DNA of 22,230 nt from a virus (lineage: Duplodnaviria; Heunggongvirae; Uroviricota; Caudoviricetes), in IMG/VR virus record IMGVR_UViG_2713896776_000007, positions 1-22,230 of that record; one strand, given 5' to 3'. The notes beneath the pieces are model-generated. The model was not told where the DNA came from, ran no database searches, and was given only the letters and a program-made list of their open reading frames with translations. Every line of letters starts with the position of its first letter. Within the stretch, counting starts at the first letter, position 1. Positions 2,256 to 22,230 of this stretch are shown piece by piece. The position numbers were made by a program, and so were the translations under genes.

Positions 2256-2309
2256 GGTAGATCTCCCTGACAAAAGCAGGAATGATGCCATTTGCGCGTT
2301 ATTTCTGCA

Positions 2310-2335
2310 TTTTCATAAACGTTGGTTTGGGAGAA
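2310..2335. repeat. 26-bp Din-family crossover site (gix/pix-like), left
   Basis: The site is ttttcataaacgTTggtttgggagaa. Its reverse complement, ttctcccaaaccAAcgtttatgaaaa, shares the first 14 nt and the central AA core with the site at 4213-4238. It has the 12-2-12 layout of hix/gix/cix/pix sites. Confidence 0.85.
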
Positions 2336-3832: not shown

Positions 3833-3852
3833 ATAAATCACCCTGAATAAAA

Positions 3853-4515: not shown

Positions 4516-4518
4516 GGA

Positions 4519-6567: not shown

Positions 6568-7112
6568 GCCTCCATCGCTTTATCAGGTTTGTCGGTGTTA
6601 CTGCCCTGACCGTTCTCTCTGTGACGATGCCCGTTATAGGCAAGCCGCATCGCTGACATGGTAGTGCCGCCGGAGTCGCACAGGTCTTTCACCTGTCCGG
6701 TCACTTCAAGGTCCATTTCAAAACGTGCTCTGGGCGCATTGCGAAACGTGATCGTTTTACCTGCACCGTCCACCACGATCCCCTCCCGGGTCAGCGTCAC
6801 AGACTGCCCCTGATCGTCATAGACAGCCACCTCACCCGTCTGCAGCCCTTTCAGGCGGTAGCGCCGGTCCGACACCGTAACAACCACCGCATGAGAACGG
6901 TCGCCATCCGGAAACAACACCACCGCTTCCGCACCGCTGTTTGCCCTTGCGGTAAAACCGTAGGGTTCAAGATGTTCAACCCCGGCTTTGGGTTCACCGG
7001 CAATCAGGGACACATCCACGGTCTGACATTTCGTGGCGGCGCTGATACTTTTCACCACTGCCCGCCCAATCAGGCCGAGAAGTTGTCGCTGCATGGCTTC
7101 AATCGTCCTCAT
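6564..7112 (-). CDS. Mu gp45-like baseplate assembly/spike protein
   Basis: It is 182 aa with an LEPYGFTARANSGAEAVVLFPDGDRSHAVVV motif typical of the Mu Gp45 / gpV family. Its start overlaps the upstream stop by 1 nt. Confidence 0.8.
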   Translation of the reverse strand: MRTIEAMQRQLLGLIGRAVVKSISAATKCQTVDVSLIAGEPKAGVEHLEPYGFTARANSGAEAVVLFPDGDRSHAVVVTVSDRRYRLKGLQTGEVAVYDDQGQSVTLTREGIVVDGAGKTITFRNAPRARFEMDLEVTGQVKDLCDSGGTTMSAMRLAYNGHRHRENGQGSNTDKPDKAMEA

Positions 7113-8191: not shown

Positions 8192-9564
8192 TGCACTGGC
8201 ACCTTCAGAGGGATCACCGGCACAAAGCCGGGATGCGTAATGGCATTACGCCGGATAATGTCCGCGTCACGCGCCGCGTTATCAAACCAGGTCGCCGCCA
8301 GCACCAGCGCGGGTAAAACCTCATCCGGTGTGCGCTGAATGATCCGAGCAGACTGTTCAAGGCGCGTGTTGATATCCGCATTCAGATCTGCTTTCACCCG
8401 GCGCAGCGCCAGAAACAGCGCATCACTGGTTGTACGGGACAACTCCTTATCAATTGCCGTATTCAGTGTGTCGCGAATGTCGGTCAGTTCTTCCCACGTT
8501 GGCAGGTCAACCGTGTTTTTCACCGCCGGTGCATTGTTCAGTGCCGGATGCGTGACGGAAGGCCAGCCGGAGCTCTGCGCGGGTGTTGTTGACTGCCCCA
8601 CTGCGGCATTCTGCATCACCGCAGAAGTTGTTGGCGCAGGCAATCGGGTGACGGCATACGCCGCTTCGCTGATTGCGGTCGTACGAAGGATGCTGGCAAC
8701 CACGTTACGCTGCTGCGTCGCCGTGGCGGTGGTTTTACTGTCCGTTTTCCAGACGCCGCGCGGTTGCAGATCGCTGCCGAGGCTGACACCGGAAAGCGTT
8801 TTGATCATGGTGACCAGGTCGCTGGCGTTACCATAAAGGCGTTTCCCGGTACGCCACATTTTCTGCACCTGCTCAACGAAATTTTTTCCTGACGATGGCG
8901 GCGGCAGAAGTACCGAGATATCCCCCTGCAACAGCCTGGCAGCATCCGATACGGCAGAATCCACCACTTTCATCGCATCAGAAACATACCCCAGCATTGT
9001 GCTGGCATTACCGACGACGTCGTTCTGCACAAAATCCGCCACGCCATCGATACTGAAACCACTGAAACTGTCACTGATGCAGTCATCCAGTGCAGAACAG
9101 GATGACATCAGCGTCTGCGCCGTCGCCGCACCTGATGTGGGGTAAGAGAGTTCTCCCGCTTCGACAAACTTCAGGTCAAAGCGGACAATACGCCCTTCAC
9201 TTTTCGATGTGCTGACCCGAACTTCCCCGTCAACACAGACTTTCAGCTCACCGTATGTCGGATGGACAAGCGTGCCGGGACCGGGTTTATTCAGCGCATC
9301 AATCAGGCGATCGCGCTGGTCAAAGCAGTCATCTCCCACCACATAAGCCGTGATGGACGGGCGGAAAGTAACTTTTCCCAGATCTTCGGTATAGGGCTTG
9401 TCGCGGTTCGGGTATTCGTGTGTTTCCACACGGCGACCGGTTCCCGCACTTTCTTCTTCAACCTTAAACGATACGCCGCGAAATGACGCGTCCTGAAGTC
9501 TGTCACGCCAGCCTGAAGACGACGAAAGTAATGAAGGTCGGGTGGGAAATGAGGATAAATCCAT
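8188..9564 (-). CDS. DNA circularisation protein N (Mu gp43-like)
   Basis: The N-terminal motif ASFRGVSFKVEEESAGTGRRVETHEYPNRDKPYTEDLG is characteristic of the DNA_circ_N domain. It follows the tape measure gene as in Mu. Confidence 0.85.
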   Translation of the reverse strand: MDLSSFPTRPSLLSSSSGWRDRLQDASFRGVSFKVEEESAGTGRRVETHEYPNRDKPYTEDLGKVTFRPSITAYVVGDDCFDQRDRLIDALNKPGPGTLVHPTYGELKVCVDGEVRVSTSKSEGRIVRFDLKFVEAGELSYPTSGAATAQTLMSSCSALDDCISDSFSGFSIDGVADFVQNDVVGNASTMLGYVSDAMKVVDSAVSDAARLLQGDISVLLPPPSSGKNFVEQVQKMWRTGKRLYGNASDLVTMIKTLSGVSLGSDLQPRGVWKTDSKTTATATQQRNVVASILRTTAISEAAYAVTRLPAPTTSAVMQNAAVGQSTTPAQSSGWPSVTHPALNNAPAVKNTVDLPTWEELTDIRDTLNTAIDKELSRTTSDALFLALRRVKADLNADINTRLEQSARIIQRTPDEVLPALVLAATWFDNAARDADIIRRNAITHPGFVPVIPLKVPVQ

Positions 9565-9588
9565 AGACTGACCTCAAAAAGGACTGCG

Positions 9589-11496
9589 TTATCGTGGAAA
9601 ACGAAAAGGGGAATACCCCACATCGTGCGTGATTTTCATCAGGGGATCGGCTTTGTCCGGTACATCAATTATCTTCATACCTGGCGGAGCATTCTCGAAC
9701 GTGACTTTCAGCTCGCTGTGCTGTGTCATGGAAGAAGATGGATTCAACAGCGGAACATTGGGTTTGTACTGACTCAGGCTGGCCTGATATTGCTCGTACT
9801 CTTTACGATCAAAAAAAGGCGTCCAGTCTGAAGCCAGAAACAGCCCTTTATTATCCAGCCAGTTAACCGTATCTTCAGGAACAACACTTTCCAGAGTATC
9901 TTTAACCGGCTCATACATCAGGGTTCCCAGAAAACCATATACCCCGGCCTTCCCGATAAAGCCGCGGCCTTTCCCCATCAATCCCGTTTCTGCCGATACC
10001 TTCCCCAGCGTACGCATCTCTCTGGTCACTGCGGTAATGGATTTGGTAACGTCAGCAACCCATTTGGTTGCCATAAACAGGGCAATCGCTTTCAGAACAG
10101 TTTCCCATCCCCCCATCGCCTGCGCCGTTTCATCCATCACGTGCCAGACTTTTTTTATGACAGGACCTACGGTTTCCCAGTTATCAATAATGAGGTAAGC
10201 GCCACCAACCAGAAGAGCAATCAGCCCCTTAGCAGGCGTCATATTCATCACACCGCCGAGAACTTTCATAATTCTGGACAAAGAGCCTGCAGCGGCTCCC
10301 ACCGTCAGTAAGGCCAGACCGATTTTAGCAATGGTCTTAACGAGCTCCGGGTTTTCACGGACAAACGTTCTCACTTCCTCAAGGAGCGGTTTTACCGCTT
10401 CAAGACCATCATTAACCTCAGGAAGAAACGTTTCCCCCAGCGTGGAAGAAATGGCATCAAGTTGATTTTGCAGAAGTAAAAGCTGGTTTTCCGTCGTCGC
10501 TGCCCTCGAAGCATATTCCTTCTGCATCGAACTGCCATACTGCTGGGAATCCGCAACCCGCCTGAAGTTGGTACGCAACAAATCAAGGTTAGTCAGCAGA
10601 GGTGCTATCGCGCCCAGAGACTCTTTCCCGAACAGGGCATTCAGCACAGCTGCCCGTTTTTCTTTAGGCACTTTAGCCATCGCATCCAGTACAGATAGCA
10701 TGGTGCCCCGGGCATCTTTCTGCATATCAGCAGCTAATTTCTTCGGATTGATCCGCAGAAAACGCAATGCCTGTTTCTGCGATTTTGTCGCAGAATTTCC
10801 CGCGGTCAGGGAAAGCATGAAGTTCTTGATCCCTGTGGCGGCAATTTCTGACTCCACGCCCATCCCGGCAATGGTTGCCCCCATTGCCGCGATTTCGCCG
10901 GAAGCCACACCTGCAACACCACCTAAAGGACCAATACGCGTAACAATATCGGAGATTTTCTTCGCGTTCGCCGGGCCGGTATTACCAAGGTAGTTGATTT
11001 TGTCAGCCAGCCCGGCCACTTCATCCTGCGTCATATTAAACGCAGTACGCCACTGGGCCATCATCTGCCCGGACTCTTCAGCCGTGGTATCAAAGGCCAC
11101 GCCCATCTTCACCGCATCAGTGGCAAACTGCATCAGTTCATCACGTGCAATCCCGGCCTGACCACCCGCCGCCACGATTTCAGCGATACCTTCCGCCGAC
11201 ATAGGCAGTTCGGTTGACAGGTCACGCACCTGCTCCGTCATGGCCTTAAACGCATCCGGCGTATCCAGACCGTCCACCACTTTGCGGACATCAGCCATCT
11301 TCGATTCAAGGGTGATGGCTGATTTTACAGGGAGTACCAGTGCCCCCATTATTGCAGTACCCGCCCCGGCAGCGCCCAGAGCAAGGCTGGAGACTTCTTT
11401 CTGAAATCCCTTAAGCTGACGCTGCATACCTTTAAGCGGGCCGGATAGCCTGTCAACGGCGGTGATGATGGCTTTCAGCTGAAAATTATCAGCCAT
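9589..11496 (-). CDS. tail tape measure protein (635 aa), cognate to this tail module
   Basis: It has a TP901-type core (SAEGIAEIVAAGGQAGI...INYLGNTGPANAKKISD), hydrophobic central helices, and the expected position after the chaperone gene. Confidence 0.9.
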   Translation of the reverse strand: MADNFQLKAIITAVDRLSGPLKGMQRQLKGFQKEVSSLALGAAGAGTAIMGALVLPVKSAITLESKMADVRKVVDGLDTPDAFKAMTEQVRDLSTELPMSAEGIAEIVAAGGQAGIARDELMQFATDAVKMGVAFDTTAEESGQMMAQWRTAFNMTQDEVAGLADKINYLGNTGPANAKKISDIVTRIGPLGGVAGVASGEIAAMGATIAGMGVESEIAATGIKNFMLSLTAGNSATKSQKQALRFLRINPKKLAADMQKDARGTMLSVLDAMAKVPKEKRAAVLNALFGKESLGAIAPLLTNLDLLRTNFRRVADSQQYGSSMQKEYASRAATTENQLLLLQNQLDAISSTLGETFLPEVNDGLEAVKPLLEEVRTFVRENPELVKTIAKIGLALLTVGAAAGSLSRIMKVLGGVMNMTPAKGLIALLVGGAYLIIDNWETVGPVIKKVWHVMDETAQAMGGWETVLKAIALFMATKWVADVTKSITAVTREMRTLGKVSAETGLMGKGRGFIGKAGVYGFLGTLMYEPVKDTLESVVPEDTVNWLDNKGLFLASDWTPFFDRKEYEQYQASLSQYKPNVPLLNPSSSMTQHSELKVTFENAPPGMKIIDVPDKADPLMKITHDVGYSPFRFPR

Positions 11497-11904
11497 GCTT
11501 CATCTCCTCATTTATACGGACGGCCTCTGCCTCCAGATCAGCAAAGTGGGAAATAGCCGTCCGGCGAAGTTCAAGGGGGTTTAATTTCCAGAACCACGCG
11601 ACATTGTAGAATCGCTTCCGGAGGTCTCTTCCGTCTCCAAGCCGGTAAAAAAACGCATTACAATCATGCCTGCCTTGAAAATATCCAGCTTCGTCATCTG
11701 CGCTGCAGACGAGCGCGGGATCCCGGCCAGAAGCGGGATATATTTCAGCGCCACCTGACTGTCCATTTTCATACCACCATCAGGCGAAACAGAGAAAGGG
11801 AACCCCAGCGCCTCAATCTCGTCATACGTAGGCTCACGTATTTCCAGCACATGCAGTGTTTCTTTGTGGGCGATGATCGGTTTTTTAAGTACAAGCTCAA
11901 TCAC
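11489..11904 (-). CDS. tail assembly chaperone, predicted -1 frameshift product (G-T analogue)
   Basis: On the coding strand the zero frame reads CGT TTT TTT ACC. The -1 frame is open from the T7 run to a TGA that overlaps the tape-measure ATG (ATGGCTGA). It adds ...YRLGDGRDLRKRFYNVAWFWKLNPLELRRTAISHFADLEAEAVRINEEMKHG. Confidence 0.6.
11581..11904 (-). CDS. tail assembly chaperone (Mu gp41-like), zero-frame product
   Basis: It is 107 aa and sits between the tube and tape measure genes. It contains a slippery run near its 3' end. Confidence 0.7.
   Translation of the reverse strand: MIELVLKKPIIAHKETLHVLEIREPTYDEIEALGFPFSVSPDGGMKMDSQVALKYIPLLAGIPRSSAAQMTKLDIFKAGMIVMRFFTGLETEETSGSDSTMSRGSGN
11647..11653 (-). 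promoter_or_regulatory. slippery heptamer T TTT TTT for a programmed -1 frameshift
   Basis: There are seven A on the + strand, hence seven T on the coding strand, in X XXY YYZ register with the chaperone frame. Confidence 0.6.
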
Positions 11905-12257
11905 TGGTAATCCCCTTCTTCACCGTGGAACTCAAGATCGACCGTGCCTTCTTCGGCATTATGGTTCGCTTCGCCGTGCAGCCAGGCAGACGACAGTACA
12001 TAGACCTGACCGTTCGCCAGCTCGGCAGTGATGGTCATCTCATCAGACGAGGTGATTTTGCTCACCGGAAAATTCTTCGGCACCTTGAAGGTCCCTTTGA
12101 CATAAGGCGCACGGTGAGTTTCCTTGCGGTCCACTGAACCGTCCAGGCCGATGATGTCATCATTGACCGTCCTGTTCATGGGCACCTCAATGCCGCCGGT
12201 CAGCGATAGCTGCTGACCGTCAATTTTGAAATAACAGGTTCCCCCGATACGGGCCAT
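11901..12257 (-). CDS. tail tube protein (Mu M / gp40-like)
   Basis: It is 118 aa (MARIGGTCYFKIDGQQLSLTGG...) and directly follows the sheath gene with overlapping stop and start. Confidence 0.8.
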   Translation of the reverse strand: MARIGGTCYFKIDGQQLSLTGGIEVPMNRTVNDDIIGLDGSVDRKETHRAPYVKGTFKVPKNFPVSKITSSDEMTITAELANGQVYVLSSAWLHGEANHNAEEGTVDLEFHGEEGDYQ

Positions 12258-13753
12258 TATGCGGACTCCTCTGAATACTGAAGACGGAACTGGTTAACCA
12301 CGGCAAAGACACGCAACTGGTTAACATAGTCAGGCGGGAACAGCGTGTTCAGGCGGTTCGGATCGCTGGCATCACGCTCCACAACTAGGTACTGCTTAAA
12401 CAGTGCGTAGTTTTCCACGATCCCCGCACGCTCAAGCTGACGGTAGGTTGCCAGCAGTTCCCCTTTGATCACCGCCGGGGTGACAATCGCCTGACCGGGA
12501 CCAAAGCGGGTACCGTCACTGGCAAGCTTGTGACGCCCGTACTTACTGGTAATGACGGATTTCAGTTTGCGCAGTACATACGCGCTGGTATGCAGGGTCT
12601 CACTGTCTAGGTAGCTGTTATCCGCAACCCCGTAAGCGTTTTTCCTGTACGTGGTGACATCACGCTGAATGCGCAGTACCCCGCTTTCGACATACGCCGT
12701 TGCCACGCCATGAGACAGCAGGGTCTGTTGTTCGGTCATCGTGAACCGTTTCCCCTTCGGCGCAGGCAGCATACCCACCAGCTCACCGGTCTGCGTGGGA
12801 CGTGCCGGATCGTTGCGAATAAACACCGCTGCGCGGGCGGTACGGCTTGCCGCCAGTTCGTCGGCAGGCGTCTGGGTCTCTTTTTCGTACCCCGCCAGGG
12901 TAATGTGCTGCTGGTTAAACTGGTCACCTGCGGTCACCAGTTCTGACAGCGTGCCGATCTTTGCCGTATACACATGACCATACAGCTGACGCGCATAGCT
13001 CCAGCGACCGCTGGTATCGTTCATCTCGGTCACCAGCGTGTTAACGGAGGCCGTGTCGTTGAACGGCAGGCCGATATAATCAAACGGCTCATCCGCCATT
13101 GCAGCCACCGCGCCGGTGAGAACCGGAGCACCCGTTCCGGCGGTACCCGTCGCCACGGCAATCTGTACGCCCGCTGGCAGCACTTCGCCCCCACCAAAGC
13201 CGTAGTAATTGAGGCTGACAGGAATTTCATTCCCGCAAAGCCCCTTATGACGCGCGGTCAGTGTGACCACGCCTGCCGAAGATGAAGCCGTAAACGGCAG
13301 GGCCGGAACGGCATTGATGGCATCTTTGATACTGCTGGCAATCGTCGTGACGTTATCGCCGTTGGTCACCGGAGCCTGCACGCGGGTACGTCCCACATAG
13401 ACATTCACCGTGCCGGTTTCGGTTGCCGCCCCGGTCACCGTCAGCGTAACCGTTGCCGCCGCGCCTGTGGATTCAGGAACGGCAATCACATACAGCTCAC
13501 CAAACGGGTCGGTCTGGCGATAAGCCTCGACCATACGCGCCAGCTGACTTCCCGCACCACAAATCTGGCGTGCATAGTCTGCCGACGGCATCAGTACCAG
13601 ACTGTTGGCAACAATCTCTGCACCGTTATTGGCATGACCAATCAGCAGCGATGCTCCGCTGTCCTGTGCAGTATTCGCCGCCGAGTTATCCATTTCCGCA
13701 TAAAACAACGGAACCAGCGTATTCGACGGAATGGTGTTAAAGCTTATCGTCAT
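12257..13753 (-). CDS. contractile tail sheath protein (Mu L / gp39-like)
   Basis: It is 498 aa. Its size, position and sequence character match Mu-type sheath proteins. Confidence 0.85.
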   Translation of the reverse strand: MTISFNTIPSNTLVPLFYAEMDNSAANTAQDSGASLLIGHANNGAEIVANSLVLMPSADYARQICGAGSQLARMVEAYRQTDPFGELYVIAVPESTGAAATVTLTVTGAATETGTVNVYVGRTRVQAPVTNGDNVTTIASSIKDAINAVPALPFTASSSAGVVTLTARHKGLCGNEIPVSLNYYGFGGGEVLPAGVQIAVATGTAGTGAPVLTGAVAAMADEPFDYIGLPFNDTASVNTLVTEMNDTSGRWSYARQLYGHVYTAKIGTLSELVTAGDQFNQQHITLAGYEKETQTPADELAASRTARAAVFIRNDPARPTQTGELVGMLPAPKGKRFTMTEQQTLLSHGVATAYVESGVLRIQRDVTTYRKNAYGVADNSYLDSETLHTSAYVLRKLKSVITSKYGRHKLASDGTRFGPGQAIVTPAVIKGELLATYRQLERAGIVENYALFKQYLVVERDASDPNRLNTLFPPDYVNQLRVFAVVNQFRLQYSEESA

Positions 13754-13907
13754 CGGTATTCACCTTTTTATTCACGCGCCGGATATCACCCGCTGCTTCA
13801 CGGCGCAGCCAGTAGTTGTTCTCGTCAACATTTCGCCCTTCGGCGGGCAAAAGGTCGCCGCGGGCAGGGTCAGGAACTGACCGCCCTTTAACAGGTTTCA
13901 CAAACAT
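13737..13907 (-). CDS. DUF2635-like small tail-module protein (Mu gp38 position), not in the ORF track
   Basis: My manual translation is MFVKPVKGRSVPDPARGDLLPAEGRNVDENNYWLRREAAGDIRRVNKKVNTDDDKL (56 aa). The pattern VKP..G..V.DP....LP.EG..V....YW.RR...GD is the DUF2635 signature as I recall it. It overlaps the sheath start by 17 nt. Confidence 0.65.
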   Translation of the reverse strand: MFVKPVKGRSVPDPARGDLLPAEGRNVDENNYWLRREAAGDIRRVNKKVNTDDDKL

Positions 13908-13915
13908 GAAGATTC

Positions 13916-14476
13916 TCAGGAAGGAAGGGTTATTTCGGTGTGATGTTCGATATCGCCGTCAGGCCCGTTACCGGGATCGAGATAATCAACATCAATCGCC
14001 AGCGTTCGCAGTTCATCCAGACTGTTCAGGTCATCCTGCTGGCGGGTATCGTCTTCAGTCAGCTCGCTGATGACCGAAAAATCGAACTGATAAATCAGCT
14101 CATGACGATTCAGATCCAGCAGCGTGCCGCCGTCATAGGTAATCGGGTTACCGCACGCCTCCGGGTTCCAGCCCAGCAGAGCCTTAAAGAGCATCTGCCG
14201 GACATCGTCCACCACATCATACGAGGCAAACTGACCGCGCTCATCACGCCCGTTACTCAGTATGACAACCACGGAGAAACCCTCTTTCAGCTCCTGCCAG
14301 TAGTCGGTCTGGCTTTTGTTTTCTCCCGGAGAATCATCACCCGGTACAACATATGCCGCCGGGAGTTTCAGCTTTCCGACCTCCGGCAGATTTTTGAACT
14401 GGGCCGCGCCTGCAACCCGGTTTTCAAAATACGGACAGCGGGCACGCAGTGCAGCAATAACAGGCGTCAGTTTCAT
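13916..14476 (-). CDS. Mu gp37-like tail completion/terminator-region protein (DUF1834-like)
   Basis: It is 186 aa and lies upstream of DUF2635 and the sheath gene, as in Mu-type tail clusters. The family assignment is from memory of the general sequence character only. Confidence 0.6.
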   Translation of the reverse strand: MKLTPVIAALRARCPYFENRVAGAAQFKNLPEVGKLKLPAAYVVPGDDSPGENKSQTDYWQELKEGFSVVVILSNGRDERGQFASYDVVDDVRQMLFKALLGWNPEACGNPITYDGGTLLDLNRHELIYQFDFSVISELTEDDTRQQDDLNSLDELRTLAIDVDYLDPGNGPDGDIEHHTEITLPS

Positions 14477-14568
14477 CTGTGTCGTCGCTCCGGCTTCAGT
14501 GATTTACGCAATTCCCGCGCCAGAAAATAGCGTGTCCAGCTGCGGTTCTTTTCAAGAGTTTCCACCAT
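14473..14568 (-). pseudogene. 31-codon ORF, possibly the 3' remnant of a head-tail joining gene
   Basis: The ORF reads MVETLEKNRSWTRYFLARELRKSLKPERRHR and has an ATGA stop/start overlap with the gp37-like gene. The same frame stays open without an ATG up to about 14680. This suggests a truncated upstream gene at a mosaic joint. Confidence 0.3.
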
Positions 14569-14704
14569 GAAGTTATTACGTGGAGCCAGTCGCCAGCCGC
14601 TGCCACCGGATGCACCTGATCCACCGCGCGATAAATAAGCCGCAATCCGTGAGATAAATGGACACGGTGCGGCTTTTCAGATACTGCAAAGGAATTACAA
14701 ATTA

Positions 14705-17182
14705 TCAGTCGTAAGCAACCCGGCGCTTACGGGCAAGAATAGCTTCCAGCGCTCTTTCAATCTCAGGAATGGACAGCTTAAGCGCATTCGCTACATCCGG
14801 TGCTGGTGACTTGTTCTTGCCATCAATATAGATATGGTTAATGACGTTAATCCCTGCACCTGCCGGTGAATGTGAATCCCGGCCTCTGGATAAGGTAAGG
14901 TCGCCGCGCATATAGCGCTCTAATACGGGTGGTACTTTCGGTACATCCGGCACCATCATATCAGCCAGCCGCGAGGAGGCTTTTAGCGCCAGCGATGCAG
15001 ACTGACCGATACCAATCGCCGCCCCTTCTGCGATGTTTGAACCGAAGCCCATAAAGACCCGGCTTGGCGAGTGAATCCCCAGCTTTTCCTTGAACCACCC
15101 GCCGACGCTATCGCCCATCTCGGTAACGGTATTCTTGAGCGACTCCCACTTATTTTTGATACCGTTCACCAGTCCGTCAATCAGGTGACCGCCAAACTCG
15201 GTAAACTGGCCGGGAAGGTCGATGTTAAACCACTTCATGACCCCCGCAAACGCCTTGTAGAACAGCCCCAGCGGCGACCAGTTCAGGATTAGCTTACTGA
15301 CGCCGAGAACGCCGCCGTTAAAGGCCGTTTTGACTTCCTCCCATCGCTGTGAGAACCATCGACTTATTGCCCCCCAGTTGCGGTATATCAGGTATGCGCC
15401 CCCGGCGATGACGGTTATCGCAATGCCTAAGGGATTCATCATCAGCGCCCGGCCAAACCAGAGAAATGCTTTTGCAACGACCATGACGCCCCTGAACAGC
15501 CCACCTGCCAGCGCTTTACCCAGCGTCCCGGCTCCCTTCGCTACGGTACTGAATCCAGTAGCCAGCCAGCGCAACCTGCCACCAACACCAAGGGCGGCTT
15601 TCAGCTTCACCCAATGAGTGTGTACCAGAACAGCGTTTTTCCACATCCCAACAAAAGGTGAAAAAAGCAGATTAAGGCCGAGCTTCAGACCGACAGTGGC
15701 AATTTTCAGCCCCAGCAGTGCGCCCACGGTTTTTGCCACACCCTGAACAAGCGTCGGATGTTGCTCTATCCAGAGCTTCGTTGTCTGAATCATCGGGATT
15801 AATTGCCGGGTTGCTGACACAAATGTAGGGGACAACTGATCGCCGAGAGAGATAGATAAATCACGGGTGTTTATCATCAGGGCTTTGGTTGCTTCCAGCG
15901 GCGATTTGAGCCTTTCAGCATAGGATGCCGCCAGCAGGTCATTATCAGCCGCTTTAAGTGCACCAGAGCGGATTGCCCTGTATTTATCCATGTTAGCAAG
16001 CATAGGGCGAACGAACGCCATTACCTGCATATCGGTGAACATCTCACCCAGCCCAAAGTTTTTAGCCAGACTTTGTAAGGCCTCGTCCCGCGCTTTGTTG
16101 TCCTGAATTTGCATTGCGGATTTAAAACCAGCCAGAGCTTTCGGACTCGTTGCATTAAGGTATCTTTGGGTTACATCCAGCATACCTTCAATGGGGGAAA
16201 CTCCGGCTGCTTTATAATTCGCAAGAGACCCCATCAGGTCGATACCTAAATCGGCAAATCGCTTCTGCGTATCAGGCGCAAAAATCTTGGTGAGGAAGTT
16301 CCTGAAATTGTTTGCAGTCTCATCCGGTGAACCTGAACCAATCATAGCGACCTGCAAACTGGCCCCAATCTCCGCCACTGCATCCTTACCGTCTGCAATA
16401 CCCTGCATCATCGGCGCAAGCGACTGAATCCATTTCACCTGGTCAGGGATTTCAAAAGACCCCTGGTCACCTGCGTAGGCCATGATGTTCTGTACCGCGC
16501 CAAATTCTTTTGCGCTGCCTTTCAGCGAGTTTTGCCACACCGCCGCAACCTTTGCCCATTCCGTTCCTGCGGTACGGGTTGCCGTGGCTGCACGGGCGAT
16601 ATTCGGCATGTAGTTGCCAATATCTGAAAGCCCGTCAATGTTATCGCTGATAAGTGAACCAACGGCGTCCTGCATATCGCTCTGATACTGGTTGTATTTG
16701 AGCGACCACCCTTTGATTTGCTCTCCCAGAGTCTTACGGGTTTTATCGTCATATTTCGCTGTGATTGACATATCAATCATTTTATCTTCAAACGATGCCG
16801 ACTGTTCTATAGCCGGGGACACAAGACTGTAAGCAGCCCTGACTTGTGCATACGCCTCTACTCCCTGACCGTAGAGCGCCATGCGGTTAGATTTCAGGGC
16901 GTCAGAAGTGGCAGACGCTGCCGACAGGCGGGACTGCTGGCGGTTAAGCTGTTCCAGCGTTCTGCCGACCCGTTGCAGGTCATTGTTCAGGCGCGAGGCT
17001 ACGCCCGAACCAACCTGACCGTAACGCTGCATGGCGCGTGACAGGCTGCTTTGCTGCTCCGTCAGTCGGCGTGAGGTGTCGCCGAGAGAATCCAGAGTAC
17101 GCCGGGTACTGCTCATCGCGGAACGAAAACTGCTCCCGACAATGCCGCCAATCATCACGCCAACAGAAAAATTATTGCTCAT
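14705..17182 (-). CDS. second tape-measure-like protein (825 aa), out of normal tail-gene context
   Basis: It has a TP901-type core region, long predicted helices and hydrophobic glycine-rich central segments. Near the C-terminus is the IHSPSRVF motif, which is common in tape measure proteins. GGAG lies 6 nt upstream of the ATG. Confidence 0.8.
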   Translation of the reverse strand: MSNNFSVGVMIGGIVGSSFRSAMSSTRRTLDSLGDTSRRLTEQQSSLSRAMQRYGQVGSGVASRLNNDLQRVGRTLEQLNRQQSRLSAASATSDALKSNRMALYGQGVEAYAQVRAAYSLVSPAIEQSASFEDKMIDMSITAKYDDKTRKTLGEQIKGWSLKYNQYQSDMQDAVGSLISDNIDGLSDIGNYMPNIARAATATRTAGTEWAKVAAVWQNSLKGSAKEFGAVQNIMAYAGDQGSFEIPDQVKWIQSLAPMMQGIADGKDAVAEIGASLQVAMIGSGSPDETANNFRNFLTKIFAPDTQKRFADLGIDLMGSLANYKAAGVSPIEGMLDVTQRYLNATSPKALAGFKSAMQIQDNKARDEALQSLAKNFGLGEMFTDMQVMAFVRPMLANMDKYRAIRSGALKAADNDLLAASYAERLKSPLEATKALMINTRDLSISLGDQLSPTFVSATRQLIPMIQTTKLWIEQHPTLVQGVAKTVGALLGLKIATVGLKLGLNLLFSPFVGMWKNAVLVHTHWVKLKAALGVGGRLRWLATGFSTVAKGAGTLGKALAGGLFRGVMVVAKAFLWFGRALMMNPLGIAITVIAGGAYLIYRNWGAISRWFSQRWEEVKTAFNGGVLGVSKLILNWSPLGLFYKAFAGVMKWFNIDLPGQFTEFGGHLIDGLVNGIKNKWESLKNTVTEMGDSVGGWFKEKLGIHSPSRVFMGFGSNIAEGAAIGIGQSASLALKASSRLADMMVPDVPKVPPVLERYMRGDLTLSRGRDSHSPAGAGINVINHIYIDGKNKSPAPDVANALKLSIPEIERALEAILARKRRVAYD

Positions 17183-17214
17183 GGTTCACTCCGGTAATGA
17201 GTGGTTCGGTGGCG

Positions 17215-17808
17215 TCATTCGGTCAGGGACAGGCCGCTGATTCCGGTAATCCCGGCAATTTCCTCGCTGACAGCCATCAGTTCACTTTCAAGCCCGGTAC
17301 GTTCGCTGACCAGCGCCGCAACGGTCTTACGGCGTTCTGCCAGTGACGGAAGTTTGTCATTGCCCCACACCACGCTTTTATCCTTCTTAAGCGCTTCGGT
17401 CAGGCGGGTGGCGACCACATCCGGGAAGAAAAAGCAGAGCTTGCGCATAACCGCCATCCCGGTATCAGCCGGGGAGATGTTTCCACCCAACCCCACCAGA
17501 CGGAACAGGCCGGAAATATCGCCGCTCTCATTCTCCAGATTGCCCCAGCGTTCGGCGTTCCCTTCACTGCCGGAACTGTTGCAGAGGACACGCTTGAATG
17601 ACTGATATTCTTCCTGCCCGAATCGCTCAATATATTCAGGAATGAAAGAACAGTAATCATTAAGCGATAAAGGCATATCCTGTAATGTGGTTATTTCGCC
17701 GTTAATTTCACTAATGCGGCGAGAGAGTTTTTCTTTCTGCTCATTCAGGGAGGCAAGATTATTTTTAACGGCGTTCAGTGCTTCGATAAGGGAAATAACT
17801 GGTTTCAT
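17215..17808 (-). CDS. hypothetical protein with coiled-coil ends (197 aa)
   Basis: It is a clean ORF whose start is 1 nt from the upstream stop. It is heptad-like at the N-terminus (LNAVKNNLASLNEQKEKLSRRISEINGEITTLQ) and at the C-terminus. I recognise no family, but a scaffold-like role is conceivable. Confidence 0.45.
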   Translation of the reverse strand: MKPVISLIEALNAVKNNLASLNEQKEKLSRRISEINGEITTLQDMPLSLNDYCSFIPEYIERFGQEEYQSFKRVLCNSSGSEGNAERWGNLENESGDISGLFRLVGLGGNISPADTGMAVMRKLCFFFPDVVATRLTEALKKDKSVVWGNDKLPSLAERRKTVAALVSERTGLESELMAVSEEIAGITGISGLSLTE

Positions 17809-17809
17809 T

Positions 17810-18424
17810 TTAATAACTCCAGATAAAAGGCGTGGTGAGTGTGAGTGCTTCGGAATAGGAGACGTTACAGGCTTCGCTTACATCCTTTATTAAAAGGTGC
17901 TGCGCTGCTCTCTGGCTGTCAGCTATGCCGTCGAACTCTGAGAAATAAACGTGTGATTCATTGTGACCAAAACAGACCGGGTAAGCGCTTTCCATAAATT
18001 CCACCTGCTCCAGCCCTTTAACGGCTGGCGGCTGTGAGCCGAGAAAACCGATATGGCGTAGATACCAAGCTCCGGTGCCTGCCGGGTTGCTGGCCTCGCC
18101 GGGCTTATAGAATGACGCAGATACTTTCCTGTAACGCCCTGAGCGCACCAGCCCCAGCAGGGTATCATCCGGTTTTACCAGTGCGAAAAGCCTGCCGTTC
18201 TTGCTTATCAGTCCGGTGGTTTCGCCATAGGCCGGGCTGTTACTGGCCGGATGCCCCAGACACAGCGGCGCACCGTAACCCGCGCTGCGATAGCCGTTAT
18301 AGGCCGCTGCCATGTTGTCGATATCCTCGTCGGAAAAGCTGATTTCCTGTCCCGCCATCGCGGTATGCGTTCCCGCCCGGAATATCTCAATCGTTTTCCA
18401 GTTGCCCAAATTAAGATTTGTCAT
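17810..18424 (-). CDS. GPO / Mu-I-like capsid protease-scaffold N-terminal domain protein (204 aa)
   Basis: The pattern W..IEIFRAG.HT...G.EISFSDEDIDNMAAAY........APLCLGH......AYGE...L...GRLFA.V.P.D.L..LV..G.Y..VSASFY...YL.H.GFLG..PPAVKGL..V.F parallels the P2 gpO and Mu I N-terminal domains as I recall them. This is remote similarity only. Confidence 0.5.
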   Translation of the reverse strand: MTNLNLGNWKTIEIFRAGTHTAMAGQEISFSDEDIDNMAAAYNGYRSAGYGAPLCLGHPASNSPAYGETTGLISKNGRLFALVKPDDTLLGLVRSGRYRKVSASFYKPGEASNPAGTGAWYLRHIGFLGSQPPAVKGLEQVEFMESAYPVCFGHNESHVYFSEFDGIADSQRAAQHLLIKDVSEACNVSYSEALTLTTPFIWSY

Positions 18425-18466
18425 TTACCTGTTCTCGGTTGTGATGTGTAAACAGTGCTTTGCTGC

Positions 18467-18823
18467 TTAGTGTCTGGCAGCGCTATCTTTCAGGCTGTTT
18501 CTGTATTCACGGCGTTTTTGGGCGATAATGTTGTAAATCCATTGCAGGGAATAGCCGTATTTTTTCGCTATTTCAGCGATGGGAATACCTTCATTAAAGT
18601 CTGCAAAAACCAGATCATATTTCTCTTCATTCTGGTCTTTTGTTCCTTTTGGGAAGTAAAGGTTAAGCCCGCCGTATACATCTGACAGATACGCCATGAT
18701 GTCTACAGCGATAGATTCAGACTGACGTTTATCGACACCGTACATGACAAGGCGGCAGGAAATGTGCGTAGCCATATCACTAAGCACTTCGGCAGATTGA
18801 CGCATTTTTTGTTTGTTGGTCAT
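18467..18823 (-). CDS. Mor/C-family transcriptional activator
   Basis: The C-terminal HTH (EGIPIAEIAKKYGYSLQWIYNIIAQKRRE) and the length (118 aa from the ATG at 18821-18823) are typical of the Mu Mor/C family. Confidence 0.8.
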   Translation of the reverse strand: MTNKQKMRQSAEVLSDMATHISCRLVMYGVDKRQSESIAVDIMAYLSDVYGGLNLYFPKGTKDQNEEKYDLVFADFNEGIPIAEIAKKYGYSLQWIYNIIAQKRREYRNSLKDSAARH

Positions 18824-19022
18824 GACTATCACCCGTTGCAATATCAGTAATTCAGTCAGAAAAGGCTTTATAAAGCTTTACAGCGTGCGACTGGCGGTAA
18901 AGGCGAACCTTGACCGCAGCAAACCAGCCTGACGGCTTAGAAAGCGTTACAGCACCTTGTTAAAGTCAGTTAATAATATCGGGTGTGGGCGGGGATGTTT
19001 TTTAATGTACTTTAGATATGAA

Positions 19023-19046
19023 GAAGCCCCTCAGAGGAGGGGCTTC
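19023..19046 (-). terminator. hairpin terminator after the DUF3077-like gene
   Basis: It has a perfect 10-bp GC-rich stem (gaagcccctc / gaggggcttc) and a 4-nt loop, 17 nt after the stop. The downstream U-tract is weak (UUCAUAUCU). Confidence 0.5.
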
Positions 19047-19062
19047 GCGGGATTACGCCAGA

Positions 19063-19353
19063 TTATTGAGGCCGTCTGTCTTTCCTCAATCCATCAAGTA
19101 GCGCCATTGCATCAGTAACCAGTATGCCAGCAGCATCCGTAACCATAGAAACATCAGAGGATGCACATGATTTATCCGTACCTAATGTAGACGCAAAATC
19201 AAGTAGCTTACGAACTGCATCAAGTCGGTAGGTGGCAGAGTCGTAAATTAACTCCTGATTAGCATCAGTCTTTAAAAACATAATATCATCAGAGGCACCT
19301 TGTGAAAATGACGGCATCGCACGGAAAGTATTTTGAGTTTCAGCCTGTTTCAT
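19063..19353 (-). CDS. hypothetical protein (96 aa, possibly DUF3077-like)
   Basis: It has an ATGA overlap with the upstream gene. It is acidic and helical. The family guess is weak. Confidence 0.45.
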   Translation of the reverse strand: MKQAETQNTFRAMPSFSQGASDDIMFLKTDANQELIYDSATYRLDAVRKLLDFASTLGTDKSCASSDVSMVTDAAGILVTDAMALLDGLRKDRRPQ

Positions 19354-20093
19354 TGTGCAGCCCTCCGGCTAATAGCGAATTTATTATAAACTTCATAACT
19401 GGCAGCATTCAGTCCGGGGTTGTATTTATCAGCCAGAGCACAGGCAATCATATGTTCAATAAATTTTGTTATTGCGTTAAGTTCGGTTTCGTCTGAATAA
19501 CGCAATGCCACTTTGAGTAACTCGCGGCAATATTGCTTTTTATTCTCTTCGATTTGGCCTGATTGTTTTATTCCTGCCTTTTTATCTAACTCGTCCTCAA
19601 CAGGCAAAGATGAGATATCCTCTTTATTGGTTAGCGTTCTTTCGCAAATAATATCTTCACCAGATTGAATTACGCGCTGCAACTCTCTGGCGCTCATGCG
19701 AAGAATATCATCAAGCGTGTGGTCGTTATATGCCCCACCACTGGCAAGGAGATCCAGTGTCACTTCATCCAGCCGGGCAAGCAGATTTAACTTCGTTTTG
19801 CCGATATCTGTTTTGGCAATTGCGGCTCGTGGTGTGTCACCGCCGAACACATGAGCGATTCGCATCGCTTTACGTGCATCGGGCAAGTTTATGCGCCATC
19901 TGTGAAGAAAGTTCGTAAACTCACCATGTTGCAGTTCCTCTTTACAGGCAAATATTTTCTTTCCCAAAGAAACCAAGCCTTCGGCCTCCGATGTCGTTTT
20001 AGCGTGAGAACTGTGAATCACGCCACTGACCACCGCAGATAAAACACTTTCTTGGTTTGTTCCAAATGAATCGTTAGACTTATCATTAGCCAT
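19350..20093 (-). CDS. DUF3102-like protein
   Basis: The segment LGKKIFACKEELQHGEFTNFLHRWRINLPDARKAMRIAHVF resembles the DUF3102 core (HGEW/F..WL.....S.R.A...M.LA). I preferred the ATG at 20091-20093 because AGGA lies 8 nt upstream. The ORF track extends to 20111. Confidence 0.55.
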   Translation of the reverse strand: MANDKSNDSFGTNQESVLSAVVSGVIHSSHAKTTSEAEGLVSLGKKIFACKEELQHGEFTNFLHRWRINLPDARKAMRIAHVFGGDTPRAAIAKTDIGKTKLNLLARLDEVTLDLLASGGAYNDHTLDDILRMSARELQRVIQSGEDIICERTLTNKEDISSLPVEDELDKKAGIKQSGQIEENKKQYCRELLKVALRYSDETELNAITKFIEHMIACALADKYNPGLNAASYEVYNKFAISRRAAQ

Positions 20094-20167
20094 GACTGTT
20101 ATCCTACGCATAACGGTTTACTGGTTAGGCCATAGCAAGTGCTCGCAACATTTGTTATGGCCGTTTC

Positions 20168-20231
20168 TCTAGACCTTTCCCTGTGTTAAGGTATAGACCT
20201 AATAAGCAAACACTAAGCTATAGGTCTATAC
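20168..20231. promoter_or_regulatory. operator-like repeats T(C/A)TAGACCT x3 in a divergent control region
   Basis: The three copies are tctagacct (20168-20176), tatagacct (20192-20200) and an inverted aggtctata (20222-20230). The last two are part of a perfect 10-bp inverted repeat (gtatagacct-N21-aggtctatac). That repeat brackets a TAATAA -10-like hexamer (20201-20206) and abuts the ATG at 20232. Confidence 0.5.
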
Positions 20232-20423
20232 ATGTCAACTATCTTGCGAGATAAAAGCCCTAAAGGGGCAGGTAAAGCCCCGATGTTCAATGTCAGGATT
20301 TCACCAGAACTGAAAGAACAGTTTGAATCACAAGCAAAAAAAGAAGGTGTTAGCTTAGGGAATTGGCTCAAAGAGCTTGGGAGAGCAGAGCTTAAGCGCA
20401 ACGGAATTGACCCGAAGGCTTAA
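20232..20423 (+). CDS. ribbon-helix-helix (Arc/CopG/HicB-antitoxin-like) DNA-binding protein
   Basis: In the 63-aa product, FNVRISPELKEQFESQAKKEGVSLGNWLKELGRAEL fits the RHH beta-alpha-alpha pattern. Confidence 0.65.
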   Translation: MSTILRDKSPKGAGKAPMFNVRISPELKEQFESQAKKEGVSLGNWLKELGRAELKRNGIDPKA

Positions 20424-20459
20424 ATTTAGTTACTAAAAAACAATAGCTTAAGGTATTTT

Positions 20460-20545
20460 TGATAAATATTTATCACTTGTATTCGACATCATAGTGATAA
20501 ATATTTATCATTCACAGCGCATCGGCACATGATAAAATGTTATCA
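20460..20545. promoter_or_regulatory. three 16-bp palindromic operators at 35-bp spacing
   Basis: TGATAAATATTTATCA occurs at 20460-20475 and identically at 20495-20510. A degenerate copy, TGATAAAATGTTATCA, lies at 20530-20545. Confidence 0.6.
20511..20538 (+). promoter_or_regulatory. putative sigma70 promoter for the 114-aa gene
   Basis: The elements are TTCACA-16 nt-TAAAAT. The -10 lies inside the third operator. GAGG lies 7 nt before the ATG at 20561. Confidence 0.4.
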
Positions 20546-20560
20546 CTTTGAGGCTAGTTT

Positions 20561-20905
20561 ATGCGTATACATGTTACTCTTAATGGCAAAAAAACAACCA
20601 TATCGATAGATGACTTGCTCTTCGACTATCTTGGTGCATGGTTGGTTGAACAAAGACCCAAACTGCACTCAAAACCTAAAGAGCAGTATGACCAAGCTAA
20701 GTCTCAGATTCGTAAATATGTGCAAGATAACGCAGAAAAACTCCCATCTAAGAACCTTAGCCAGCACATACAAAATGCCATTTTAGAAATAATTATGCCG
20801 AAAGAATTAAATGAAATTCTAGAGAAAAGAGGGCCAAGATATGAGAAGAAAAAGTTTGATGTGACCACAATTTTCCCTGATTGGGAAAATTATCTGAGAA
20901 AGTAA
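20561..20905 (+). CDS. RHH_4-like (PF13467-type) ribbon-helix-helix domain protein
   Basis: IHVTLNGKKTTISIDDLLFDYLGAWL....NLSQHIQNAILEI parallels the RHH_4 pattern (v.l.G..TSisLE..FW..L...A...NLSSaiR..vL) as I recall it. Confidence 0.5.
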   Translation: MRIHVTLNGKKTTISIDDLLFDYLGAWLVEQRPKLHSKPKEQYDQAKSQIRKYVQDNAEKLPSKNLSQHIQNAILEIIMPKELNEILEKRGPRYEKKKFDVTTIFPDWENYLRK

Positions 20906-20924
20906 TTAAATCAATGGATTGTAT

Positions 20925-20944
20925 ACCGCTCAGCGCTGAGCGGT
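20925..20944 (+). terminator. palindromic hairpin after the 114-aa gene
   Basis: accgctcagcgctgagcggt is a perfect 20-bp palindrome 19 nt after the stop. The T-tract is poor (tctgtgg). Confidence 0.35.
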
Positions 20945-21157
20945 TCTGTGGCTCTAGATCTGCCAACGTTGGCAGATTTGCCAATACCGCATTTGATTGA
21001 TGGTATCGAATCGCAAATGTCCCAGCGCTGGGAATCATCCCCAAAGGCGCAGACATCTGCGCCTTTGAGAAGCACGGAACTAAAATCCGTTTCACTGTAT
21101 GACTGTATGGTATGAGGCTTTCAGATGCTTACTGAGGCTTAAATAAGCTAATGAAGT

Positions 21158-21186
21158 TTGCATCATCTGTTCCAAGTTAGTACACT
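21158..21186 (+). promoter_or_regulatory. putative sigma70 promoter of the antitoxin sRNA
   Basis: The elements are TTGCAT-17 nt-TACACT. The predicted start at about 21193-21194 coincides with the first base of the left inverted-repeat arm. Confidence 0.45.
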
Positions 21187-21193
21187 TATCCCT

Positions 21194-21226
21194 GTTAGTG
21201 GATGCGTGACGCGCTCTGGTTGAGGC
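21194..21226. repeat. left arm of a perfect 33-bp inverted repeat
   Basis: gttagtggatgcgtgacgcgctctggttgaggc is the exact reverse complement of 21444-21476. Confidence 0.95.
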
Positions 21227-21272
21227 TCATTACCTTGAACAGAGATTCATCACCTTAAGCACCCAAAGAAAA

Positions 21273-21302
21273 AAGCCTGACCTCACCAGTCGGGCTTTTT
21301 TT
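21273..21302 (+). terminator. rho-independent terminator
   Basis: The 9-bp stem is aagccugac / gucgggcuu with one G-U pair and a 7-nt loop. It is followed by a T7 run. An A6 run upstream could allow bidirectional use. Confidence 0.75.
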
Positions 21303-21324
21303 GTCCGTTATTTACTCCAGTCCT

Positions 21325-21352
21325 TTGAATACACTGCTGATGCCTTTATAAT
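21325..21352 (+). promoter_or_regulatory. strong sigma70-like promoter of the toxin mRNA
   Basis: The elements are TTGAAT-16 nt-TATAAT. The predicted start is at about G21359. Confidence 0.55.
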
Positions 21353-21443
21353 CACAGCGTTAGTGGGTGTCCCGTTCTGACACAACGCAGGCATGTGAAA
21401 CGTGTTCAAGCCCTGGCTGGATTACGGGTGGTGCCGCTCCAGT

Positions 21444-21476
21444 GCCTCAACCAGAGCGCGTCACGCATCCACTAAC
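21444..21476. repeat. right arm of the perfect 33-bp inverted repeat (predicted sRNA target in the toxin leader)
   Basis: gcctcaaccagagcgcgtcacgcatccactaac lies 73-105 nt upstream of the toxin ATG. Confidence 0.95.
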
Positions 21477-21548
21477 AATGCAACACCGTTAACCAGGCAG
21501 TGGAAGGGCTTTAATGGTGATGCCGCGCTCCTGTAGTGGAGCAAACGG

Positions 21549-21632
21549 ATGAAGGGATTTCTTCAAATCGCTGTCATCGCTCTTAAGGCAATTGTCGCCT
21601 TTATTGAGCTGATTCTGGCCTGCTTACCGTAA
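21549..21632 (+). CDS. 27-aa hydrophobic TisB/DinQ-like type I toxin candidate, not in the ORF track
   Basis: My manual translation is MKGFLQIAVIALKAIVAFIELILACLP. From memory, TisB is MNLVDIAILILKLIVAALQLLDAVLKYLK and DinQ is MIDKAIIVLGALIALLELIRFLLQLLN. GGAG lies 7 nt upstream of the ATG, and a strong hairpin follows the stop. Confidence 0.55.
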   Translation: MKGFLQIAVIALKAIVAFIELILACLP

Positions 21633-21651
21633 GCAACCGGGAAACGTAAGT

Positions 21652-21680
21652 AAGGCCACCGGCTCACCCCCGGTGGCCTT
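21652..21680 (+). terminator. hairpin terminator of the toxin mRNA
   Basis: It has a perfect 11-bp stem (aaggccaccgg / ccggtggcctt) and a 7-nt loop, 19 nt after the stop. The U-tract is weak. Confidence 0.55.
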
Positions 21681-21885
21681 TAACATTTTAAGTCTGCCTC
21701 GCCGCTCTACCGGCCATTCATTTTTGAAGCTGGCTGAGTGTTAAGGCTAAATTTAAGGTGGCACTGACGGCTTAAATTCCTGCGATATCCTGGCATGTCG
21801 TTATGATTAAAGCGCATTAGAAACAAATTTCATCGTTCTGATTAAACATGTTTACCTGACTATTCAAAGTAAGGTAAATCTCAAT

Positions 21886-22230
21886 ATGGCACGACCTCAG
21901 ACGGTTAATCAGTTACCCGACTCTATCAAGAAGAAACTGAATAAAAAGCTGACGGAAAGTTCATTCAGCGGCTACGTTCAGCTTACTGAGTGGTTAAACT
22001 CGTTGGGATACCCGGTTTCAAAATCATCAGTGCATCGCTATGCTGAACGTCGCCGCCTGTCACTTATAGCAGGGAGCGATACTCCCGGCGCAACAGCTAA
22101 CATTGTGGATACGAAACTTCGCTGTCTGGAGCTTGCCTCGCTCTCTTTAAAAACGGACGAGAAGTTGTCAGCAGATGAAGTAAAAAAATATGCTGAAAAT
22201 TTGATGGGGTGGCTTTACGACCAGAAATAA
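21886..22230 (+). CDS. Mu gp27-like protein (DUF3486, terminase small subunit candidate)
   Basis: QLPDSIKKKLNKKLTESSFSGYVQLTEWLNSLGYPVSKSSVHRYAERRR matches the DUF3486 N-terminal pattern (LP.E.r..Ld..L.d..fsGY..L.eWLne.G..iSKSAvHRYg). The stop is at the last bases of the window. At 114 aa it is short for the family. Confidence 0.75.
   Translation: MARPQTVNQLPDSIKKKLNKKLTESSFSGYVQLTEWLNSLGYPVSKSSVHRYAERRRLSLIAGSDTPGATANIVDTKLRCLELASLSLKTDEKLSADEVKKYAENLMGWLYDQK

Follow-up and report, generated by a model that had tools for sequence, protein, structure and literature searches.

The DNA considered here is a stretch of 22,230 nucleotides (the window), positions 1 to 22,230 of the Caudoviricetes record IMGVR_UViG_2713896776_000007, in which three 16-bp palindromes, O1, O2 and O3, lie directly ahead of a 114-codon gene designated p114. 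These palindromes are probably the operator set of the p114 protein, with which they would form an autoregulatory cassette. The sequences compared indicate that the array is real, conserved and constrained and that it overlaps a predicted promoter, and from these features we infer that it is bound by protein. A sequence-only reading of the window had proposed an operator array overlapping a promoter, a proposal that is supported. That reading had also tied its case to the presence of the motif in homologous prophages; the motif was looked for, and the array is conserved in relatives.

At every p114 homologue locus examined (43-51% full-length identity, in Gamma- and Betaproteobacteria), two to four palindromes of the form GATA-N6-TATC are found directly upstream of the ATG, and the pattern was not found elsewhere in those loci. 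The independent loci that could be placed on DNA, cited here by L numbers, are L005/L006 (p114 at 49% identity; four sites spaced by 34, 33 and 34 bp), L008 from Dechloromonas (three sites; 34 and 34 bp), L009 from Paracidovorax (two sites; 35 bp), L010 from Dactylopiibacterium (three sites; 34 and 34 bp), L012 (three sites; 33 and 34 bp) and L013 (three sites; 34 and 34 bp). The window has three sites with centre-to-centre distances of exactly 35 and 35 bp, which confirms the coordinates given earlier for two identical perfect palindromes and one degenerate copy. Spacing therefore falls between 33 and 35 bp in 14 of 14 adjacent site pairs, and in all these loci the centre of the proximal site is 23.5-41.5 bp ahead of the ATG.

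A scan of 2.9 million viral contigs for the DNA pattern alone gave four matches, and a p114 homologue adjoins the array in all four; a profile search with eight p114-family sequences led to three genome loci. By comparison, a scan of viral contigs for the lone 16-mer gave at least 120 matches and is uninformative, as an AT-rich 16-mer is expected by chance in such a large collection. Two variants of the mobile element described below, L003 (CX21) and L004 (SK1144), carry neither p114 nor any site. Within the Proteobacteria, the link between array and p114 holds in both directions at the loci compared and, because the array always travels with the p114 gene, the palindromes are most likely p114's own operator sites.

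The sequence-only reading had assigned the array to one of two adjacent ribbon-helix-helix (RHH) proteins, taken to be the products of p114 and of a 63-aa gene upstream of the array. The p114 half of this assignment agrees with the strict co-occurrence, whereas the 63-aa RHH gene shows a complementary distribution, and binding of the 63-aa protein to the array, alone or together with p114, is now highly improbable. The 63-aa protein is indeed a genuine RHH DNA-binding protein by profile, as had been recognized (Pfam HicB, 27.3 bits against a cut-off of 21; PHROG "Arc-like repressor"), its gene lies at a distance of 36 bp from O1, and binding to arrayed repeats is a known property of RHH proteins. 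However, an RHH gene is absent from six array-bearing loci, while L003 and L004 carry the RHH gene without an array. Moreover, the RHH gene has an inverted repeat of its own (Table 1), the arms of which change along with the RHH beta-strand: in L004 the arms GTATAGACCTA/TAGGTCTATAC are retained with an altered spacer, and L003 has GTACGTACCATTG...CAATGGTACGTA in place of the arms and FQIRIT in place of the strand FNVRIS. This repeat is likely the operator of the 63-aa protein and probably the real divergent control point of the window's element, and the RHH gene is probably not the source of the array's binder.

The 14-bp core alone, on a wider comparison, shows no specificity for p114. In a double-site scan of metagenomes, a p114 homologue was absent from 15 of 16 matches. 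Triplets from gut and other AT-rich contigs share the 14-bp core GATAAATATTTATC with a spacing of 30-33 bp; AGATAAATATTTATCT-like triplets, spaced by 33 and 30 bp, are carried by L018 (1723-1800) and L025 (3690-3770) and also by L015, L019, L023, L024, L026 and L030. In L018 and L025, the two contigs examined, the triplets lie between divergent XRE cI/cro-like genes, and most other metagenome matches show the same AGATA...TATCT pattern. By analogy, such triplet arrays would serve as operators elsewhere, in an unrelated switch that uses the same core.

Within the window, four matches to the palindrome were found at up to 3 mismatches, compared to 0.10 expected, and none of 100 shuffled sequences reached four. 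A weight matrix was built solely from the sites of the other loci, leaving out those of the window; the maximum over 200 shuffles of the window was 18.9 bits, below all three copies (Table 1). After the array, the next best place in the window scored 16.7 bits (at 3761) and the remainder 6 bits or less. This next best place, 3761-3776 (TGATTTATATTTATCA), is the fourth of the palindrome matches; it has 2 mismatches and is located inside an open reading frame (ORF) of the tail module and outside the mobile element. It is probably a chance match, given its broken GATA core, its location in a tail-module ORF and a score within the range of the shuffles.

Comparison of five distinct Enterobacteriaceae alleles showed that the 14-bp cores of O1, O2 and O3 are unchanged, while the same alleles carry many substitutions in the 36-bp stretch that separates O1 from the RHH stop codon. 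Substitutions inside the 16-mers are confined to the outermost bases: O1 is invariant at 16 of 16 positions, and the sole change in O2 is an outermost T>C in L002. All five alleles share the first 15 bases of O3, TGATAAAATGTTATC, with one another and with the third copy of L005, and the proximal-site variant GATAAAAT is shared by L002, L005, L008 and L012, with TGATAAGAT as the L010 counterpart. The weaker proximal copy is kept as TGATAAAAT, an extended -10, so that on these alignments the degeneracy of the third copy is itself conserved, the variant creating TGnTAAAAT. The site consensus is tGATAAaw.wtTTATCa, or tGATAAATATTTATCa in its compact operator form, present in two to four copies at 34 +/- 1 bp. 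A literature search found no paper that contains the 16-mer.

The form of the sites also bears on a possible host binder. The TGATAA half-site within an AT-rich palindrome is shared with the Fur box, a resemblance raised as a caveat in the sequence-only reading, and since Fur is conserved in all host taxa involved, a motif kept from one taxon to another would be compatible with Fur. Nevertheless, the caveat can be largely dismissed, and it is very unlikely that a host global regulator, be it Fur or another protein with a preference for AT-rich DNA, binds the array, with p114 as no more than the regulated gene. GATA-N6-TATC is found in 21 of 21 independent sites, whereas the 7-1-7 consensus of Fur implies N5. 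The best matches of the array to the 19-bp Fur consensus GATAATGATAATCATTATC reach 12 of 19 positions (at 20490 and 20497), while scores of 13-14 of 19 occur at unrelated places in the window, and none of the ten best 7-1-7 matches in the window falls in the array. Fur sites are contiguous hexamer arrays; here the sites are discrete palindromes 34 bp apart, and the motif goes with a single rare gene family carried by mobile elements.

It is, finally, extremely improbable that the repeats act as a nucleic-acid structure or a non-transcriptional site, such as an RNA hairpin of 18 bp between O1 and O2, iterons or a partition centromere. O1 and O2 extend to 18 nt on their facing sides (TGATAAATATTTATCACT/AGTGATAAATATTTATCA), O1 pairs with O2 in the computed fold of the RNA of 20450-20565 (-28.2 kcal/mol; z = -4.35), and repeat arrays upstream of genes for small DNA-binding proteins are typical of ParR/ParG centromeres. 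The low folding energy is, however, an automatic outcome of repeating one palindrome; neighbouring copies in L008, L009 and L013 differ at positions that would be required to pair, the copy number varies from 2 to 4, and no U-tract follows the hairpin. Neither a ParA/ParM nor a Rep gene was found in the element, the repeats are palindromes and not direct repeats, and the element is chromosomal and moves by transposition.

The array is superimposed on a predicted promoter of p114 (Table 1), and the earlier observation that the third copy overlaps the -10 of this TTCACA-16-TAAAAT promoter holds, the -10 lying within O3. A TG two bases upstream of the -10, contributed by the first bases of O3, makes this an extended -10 (TGaTAAAAT), and the promoter agrees with the consensus at 10 of 12 positions plus the TG. 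The same layout, with a 16-nt spacer and the -10 within the last site, recurs in L002, L008 and L010; in these loci and in the window a -35-like hexamer (TTCACA, TTGCGC or TTGTCT) begins at or within the last two bases of the penultimate site. Transcription of p114 is predicted to start near 20545, relative to which O3, O2 and O1 would be centred at about -7.5, -42.5 and -77.5, respectively. Scans of relatives for a leftward promoter beneath the distal site gave matches at chance level.

Table 1. Positions in the window of the palindromes, promoter elements and genes discussed
Feature	Positions	Strand	Basis or remark
O1, distal perfect palindrome TGATAAATATTTATCA	20460-20475	.	27.4 bits; centre 20467.5
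O2, middle perfect palindrome TGATAAATATTTATCA	20495-20510	.	27.4 bits; centre 20502.5; abuts -35 hexamer
O3, proximal weaker palindrome TGATAAAATGTTATCA, 3 mismatches	20530-20545	.	23.9 bits; centre 20537.5
Predicted sigma-70 promoter of p114: TTCACA (20511-20516), 16-nt spacer, TAAAAT (20533-20538)	20511-20538	+	Consensus match
Second promoter-like match: TCGACA, 17 nt, TATCAT; -10 within O2	20483-20511	+	Consensus match only
Ribosome-binding site GAGG, 7 nt ahead of ATG	20550-20553	+	Direct sequence reading
p114, 114-aa gene; proposed cognate DNA-binding autoregulator of an uncharacterised family	20561-20905	+	
63-aa RHH (Arc/HicB-like) gene, directly upstream of array	20232-20423	+	Pfam/PHROG match
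Inverted repeat GTATAGACCTA-N19-TAGGTCTATAC, 11-bp arms, ending at RHH start codon (putative RHH operator)	20191-20231	.	
Mobile element, 7.6-8.0 kb in total; left ~7.6 kb in window, right terminus beyond window	14617-22230	.	

These features suggest how the cassette could operate. p114 would bind each 16-20 bp site as a symmetric oligomer, most simply a dimer, and the perfect distal sites O1 and O2 would be occupied first; O3, helped by O1 and O2, would then occlude the p114 promoter, resulting in negative autoregulation. Since O3 lies within the extended -10 and O2 abuts the -35, occupancy would exclude RNA polymerase and p114 would repress itself. Array and gene would thus make up a self-contained regulatory cassette, which in most relatives would probably also be the main switch of the element, divergent from the leftward operon. 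More speculatively, O2 at -42.5 could also activate at low occupancy, as at lambda PRM. DNA binding by p114, stoichiometry, cooperativity among the sites, the sign of regulation and the transcription start are all features that we infer from sequence.

The spacing of 33-35 bp corresponds to approximately 3.2-3.3 helical turns, and neighbouring sites would therefore lie on different faces of the DNA. Either promoter geometry sets the fixed spacing, such that one site covers the -10 and its neighbour lies immediately upstream of the -35, or DNA is wrapped by the complex; at about 3.25 turns, the spacing represents a concrete structural puzzle.

A number of observations weigh against p114 as the autoregulatory binder of the array. 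Simple side-by-side cooperativity between sites is not obvious at this spacing. The match to a promoter ahead of p114 is, taken alone, at chance level, and a promoter of this type is not evident in L009 or L013. No recognised DNA-binding domain was found in p114 by sequence or fold search, and co-occurrence may leave room for a second, unlinked binder. In addition, the weight matrix found no further sites elsewhere in the element; the sites at its own gene are the only predicted targets of p114 there.

The p114 protein belongs to a rare family, with 27 cluster representatives at E <= 1e-3 among 1.84 billion, and is named "hypothetical protein" in every source. The description of its gene as RHH_4-like in the sequence-only reading was not borne out: p114 has no match in Pfam even at E <= 1, RHH_4 (PF13467) is touched by 1 of 26 family members (E = 0.016), and hhalign of p114 against the neighbouring true RHH protein gave a probability of 0.2%, so that membership of p114 in the RHH superfamily is not established. 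Searches of PHROG, NCBIfam and PADLOC placed p114 in no family, a p114 profile search of PDB sequences gave no match, and a fold search with the p114 model found no match in PDB and BFVD. The AlphaFold2 model (predicted local distance difference test score, pLDDT, of 89.8) shows a confidently modelled beta-hairpin at residues 2-15 (strands 2-7 and 10-15), behind which the main helices span 18-28, 39-56, 66-78 and 81-90; two short helices lie at the C-terminus. Across the family M1 and L20 are invariant, the hairpin holds three of the six nearly invariant positions (H4, T12 and S15), and the hairpin consensus MRIHVT..GK.TTISVDD is mostly shared. As the most conserved positions cluster at the N-terminal hairpin, a beta-ribbon through which p114 would read DNA is a reasonable guess.

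The regulatory logic proposed here is ordinary. Novelty lies in the protein family, in the fixed 34-bp phasing and in the host element. As in the CI/Cro sites OR1-OR3 of lambda, multiple copies of one palindrome are present (here two to four) and, as in lambda-type switches, the strongest copies are distal, the weakest is on the predicted promoter of the proposed regulator and this regulator is encoded next to the sites. Unlike CI and Cro, p114 is not a helix-turn-helix/XRE protein and has no detectable relative of known fold; the spacing is 33-35 bp as compared to 23-24 bp in lambda-type switches and, unlike in lambda, the window array does not lie between divergent genes and no second, Cro-like partner is evident. 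Arc and Mnt of P22 immI are, as proposed for p114, small phage-borne repressors with short palindromic operators on promoters and a presumed beta-ribbon reading head. However, p114 fails every RHH profile test run, its model shows an intramolecular beta-hairpin and four main helices in place of the beta-alpha-alpha unit of Arc and Mnt, and these two repressors use single operators, not phased arrays. In Mu, three operator regions (O1-O3) under repressor c control early transcription of a transposable phage, and in relatives the p114 cassette sits in a corresponding position, where Mu has a leftward regulator facing the early operon. p114 nevertheless has no sequence or fold relation to Mu c, the operators of Mu are not simple phased palindromes as those of p114 are, and the window's element has no transposase and carries ends of the BcepMu type, not the Mu type.

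The sequence-only reading had placed these genes in a prophage. Positions 1963-14616 of the window are indeed an SfV/SfIV-like myovirus tail module; the genes discussed here, however, belong to a small transposase-less element inserted in this SfV-like prophage tail module. The element has the termini 5'-TGATCCACCGCGCGATAAAT...ATTTATCTCAYGTCTAATCA-3' (TGAT...ATCA), with the left terminus TGATCCACCGCGCGATAAAT at 14617. Complete copies were found in L001 (15318-23071), L002 (4271-12123), L003 (4270-11882) and L007 (4057-11811), and also in L148-L155. Ten independent insertions, in assemblies of E. coli, Enterobacter and others, show the element flanked by perfect 6-bp target duplications; insertion sites include a lambdoid capsid gene, a phosphotransferase system (PTS) gene, the dacD-sbmC interval, the prlF-yhaV gap and another SfV-like prophage. 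In E. coli AW1.7 (L001 14388-15317 and 23075-23173), the insertion lies within the major capsid gene of a lambdoid (Qin-like) prophage and splits that gene, and in several genomes (L148-L151 2559-2894 and 10650-11114) prlF (antitoxin) and yhaV (toxin) are separated by the element. Since it inserts in prophage structural genes, a toxin-antitoxin operon and metabolic genes of Enterobacteriaceae, the element is a source of insertional mutation.

No transposase or integrase is encoded in the element. Its genes are those for a tape measure protein, a 197-aa protein, a 204-aa protein that matches the N-terminal part of a head protease, Mor, a 96-aa protein, a DUF3102 protein, RHH, p114 and a Gp27-like N-terminal domain, the last preceded by approximately 1 kb of non-coding DNA rich in hairpins. 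The Escherichia phage PhiKM (Bcepmuvirus) has a tape measure homologue with 71% identity to that of the element, as well as homologues of DUF3102, Mor/C, the protease N-terminus and the small-terminase N-terminus at 29-45% identity, and its terminus TGATTAGACTTGAGATAAAT... is 82% identical to the right end of the element over 50 bp. BcepMu-type phages are described with TG...CA termini and Tn552-related transposases (PMC2628397). Without a transposase of its own, and with genes and an end related to those of PhiKM, the element can be regarded as a candidate satellite, or hitch-hiker, of BcepMu-like transposable phages, with putative mobilisation and packaging by a helper; the lack of an integrase, together with transposase-type ends and target duplications, suggests that it would be moved by the transposase of the helper. 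Like the satellites P4, phage-inducible chromosomal islands (PICI, including the Staphylococcus aureus islands, SaPI) and PICI-like elements (PLE), it is small, lacks capsid, portal and replication-integration enzymes, and carries homologues of helper genes and divergent regulators of its own. Unlike P4, PICI and PLE, it has no integrase and shows transposase-type ends and 6-bp duplications at many sites. A literature search found no paper describing satellites of transposable phages.

A satellite character of the element would raise the possibility that a regulator of the helper phage binds the array and that p114 is an effector whose expression senses the state of the helper. Satellites such as SaPI and P4 commonly wire their control regions to helper proteins, the cassette is found in elements with genes related to those of BcepMu-type phages, and the window's element family has one matching end. 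However, PhiKM, the one related phage examined, carries no GATA-N6-TATC site, and its repressor therefore does not appear to use the motif. Presence or absence of the cassette is also uncoupled from the rest of the element, which fits a self-contained protein-site pair better, and control by the helper is considered unlikely.

With p114 retained as the probable binder, the position of the cassette differs among relatives. A leftward operon, with DUF3102-, Mor- and protease-like genes that the window's element has as well, diverges from the p114 gene in L005, L012 and L013, and the same divergent arrangement is seen in L010, where the gene adjoining the array was not identified. In these first three loci the cassette plausibly, by position only, occupies the place of a master repressor. 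The suggestion of the sequence-only reading that the array is an immunity or decision switch is therefore consistent with the divergent position in L005, L012 and L013. In the window, RHH with its own inverted repeat holds the divergent position and p114 lies behind RHH.

A broader interpretation is tentative and rather doubtful at present: p114 would found a DNA-binding family with a fold so far absent from the PDB that reads DNA through its N-terminal hairpin, and the array would be the master switch of an undescribed class of satellites, moved by the transposase of a helper and re-tooling small terminase, scaffold/protease and tape measure. If true, this would describe 8-kb transposase-less elements that copy the ends of BcepMu-like phages. 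Independently of this interpretation, a well-defined operator is paired with a family that has no annotation or structural relative, representing a potential orthogonal repressor-operator part, and the cassette marks the control region of elements that apparently hitch-hike on transposable (BcepMu-type) phages. The array itself is of moderate interest; the element that it helps to define is of more.

Among the neighbouring genes, the 63-aa gene is named HicAB type II toxin-antitoxin in RefSeq. The protein matches just the RHH part of the HicB profile and no HicA toxin ORF was found beside the gene, its neighbours being the DUF3102 gene and p114. The "Gp27 family" gene at 21886-22230 encodes just 114 aa, of which only the first ~55 residues match positions 1-50 of a 173-position small-terminase profile; identity with the PhiKM small terminase, at its N-terminus, is 45%. 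The gene appears to have retained a DNA-binding N-terminal domain and to lack the remainder of the terminase subunit. The 204-aa protein (17810-18424, minus strand) matches PHROG 976 (head maturation protease) over only the N-terminal 173 of its 415 positions and is ~41% identical to the N-terminal part of a 371-aa PhiKM protein (5114-6229); it is a truncated homologue, a form also known from capsid-remodelling satellite proteins.

Downstream of p114, approximately 1 kb (20906-21885) contains no convincing ORF and is dense in short GC-rich palindromes of the form NNNN-AGCGCT/AACGTT-NNNN, for example at 20925-20944, 20958-20977, 21020-33 and 21042-21067. Comparable palindromes are found in L004 (9373-10240) and upstream of the arrays in L008 and L010, with CAAAGGCGCAGACATCTGCGCCTTTG here and AAAAGCACAGACATCTGCGC in L008; candidate roles are those of protein-binding sites, a packaging site or structured RNA. 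A search of Rfam gave no match at gathering score. Below this threshold, a match to the R1162-like plasmid antisense RNA (RF00043; 32 bits compared to a gathering score of 55, E = 0.005) was found at 20086-20163 on the minus strand, spanning a hairpin with a 14-bp stem (20128-20162) in the leader of the leftward DUF3102 operon.

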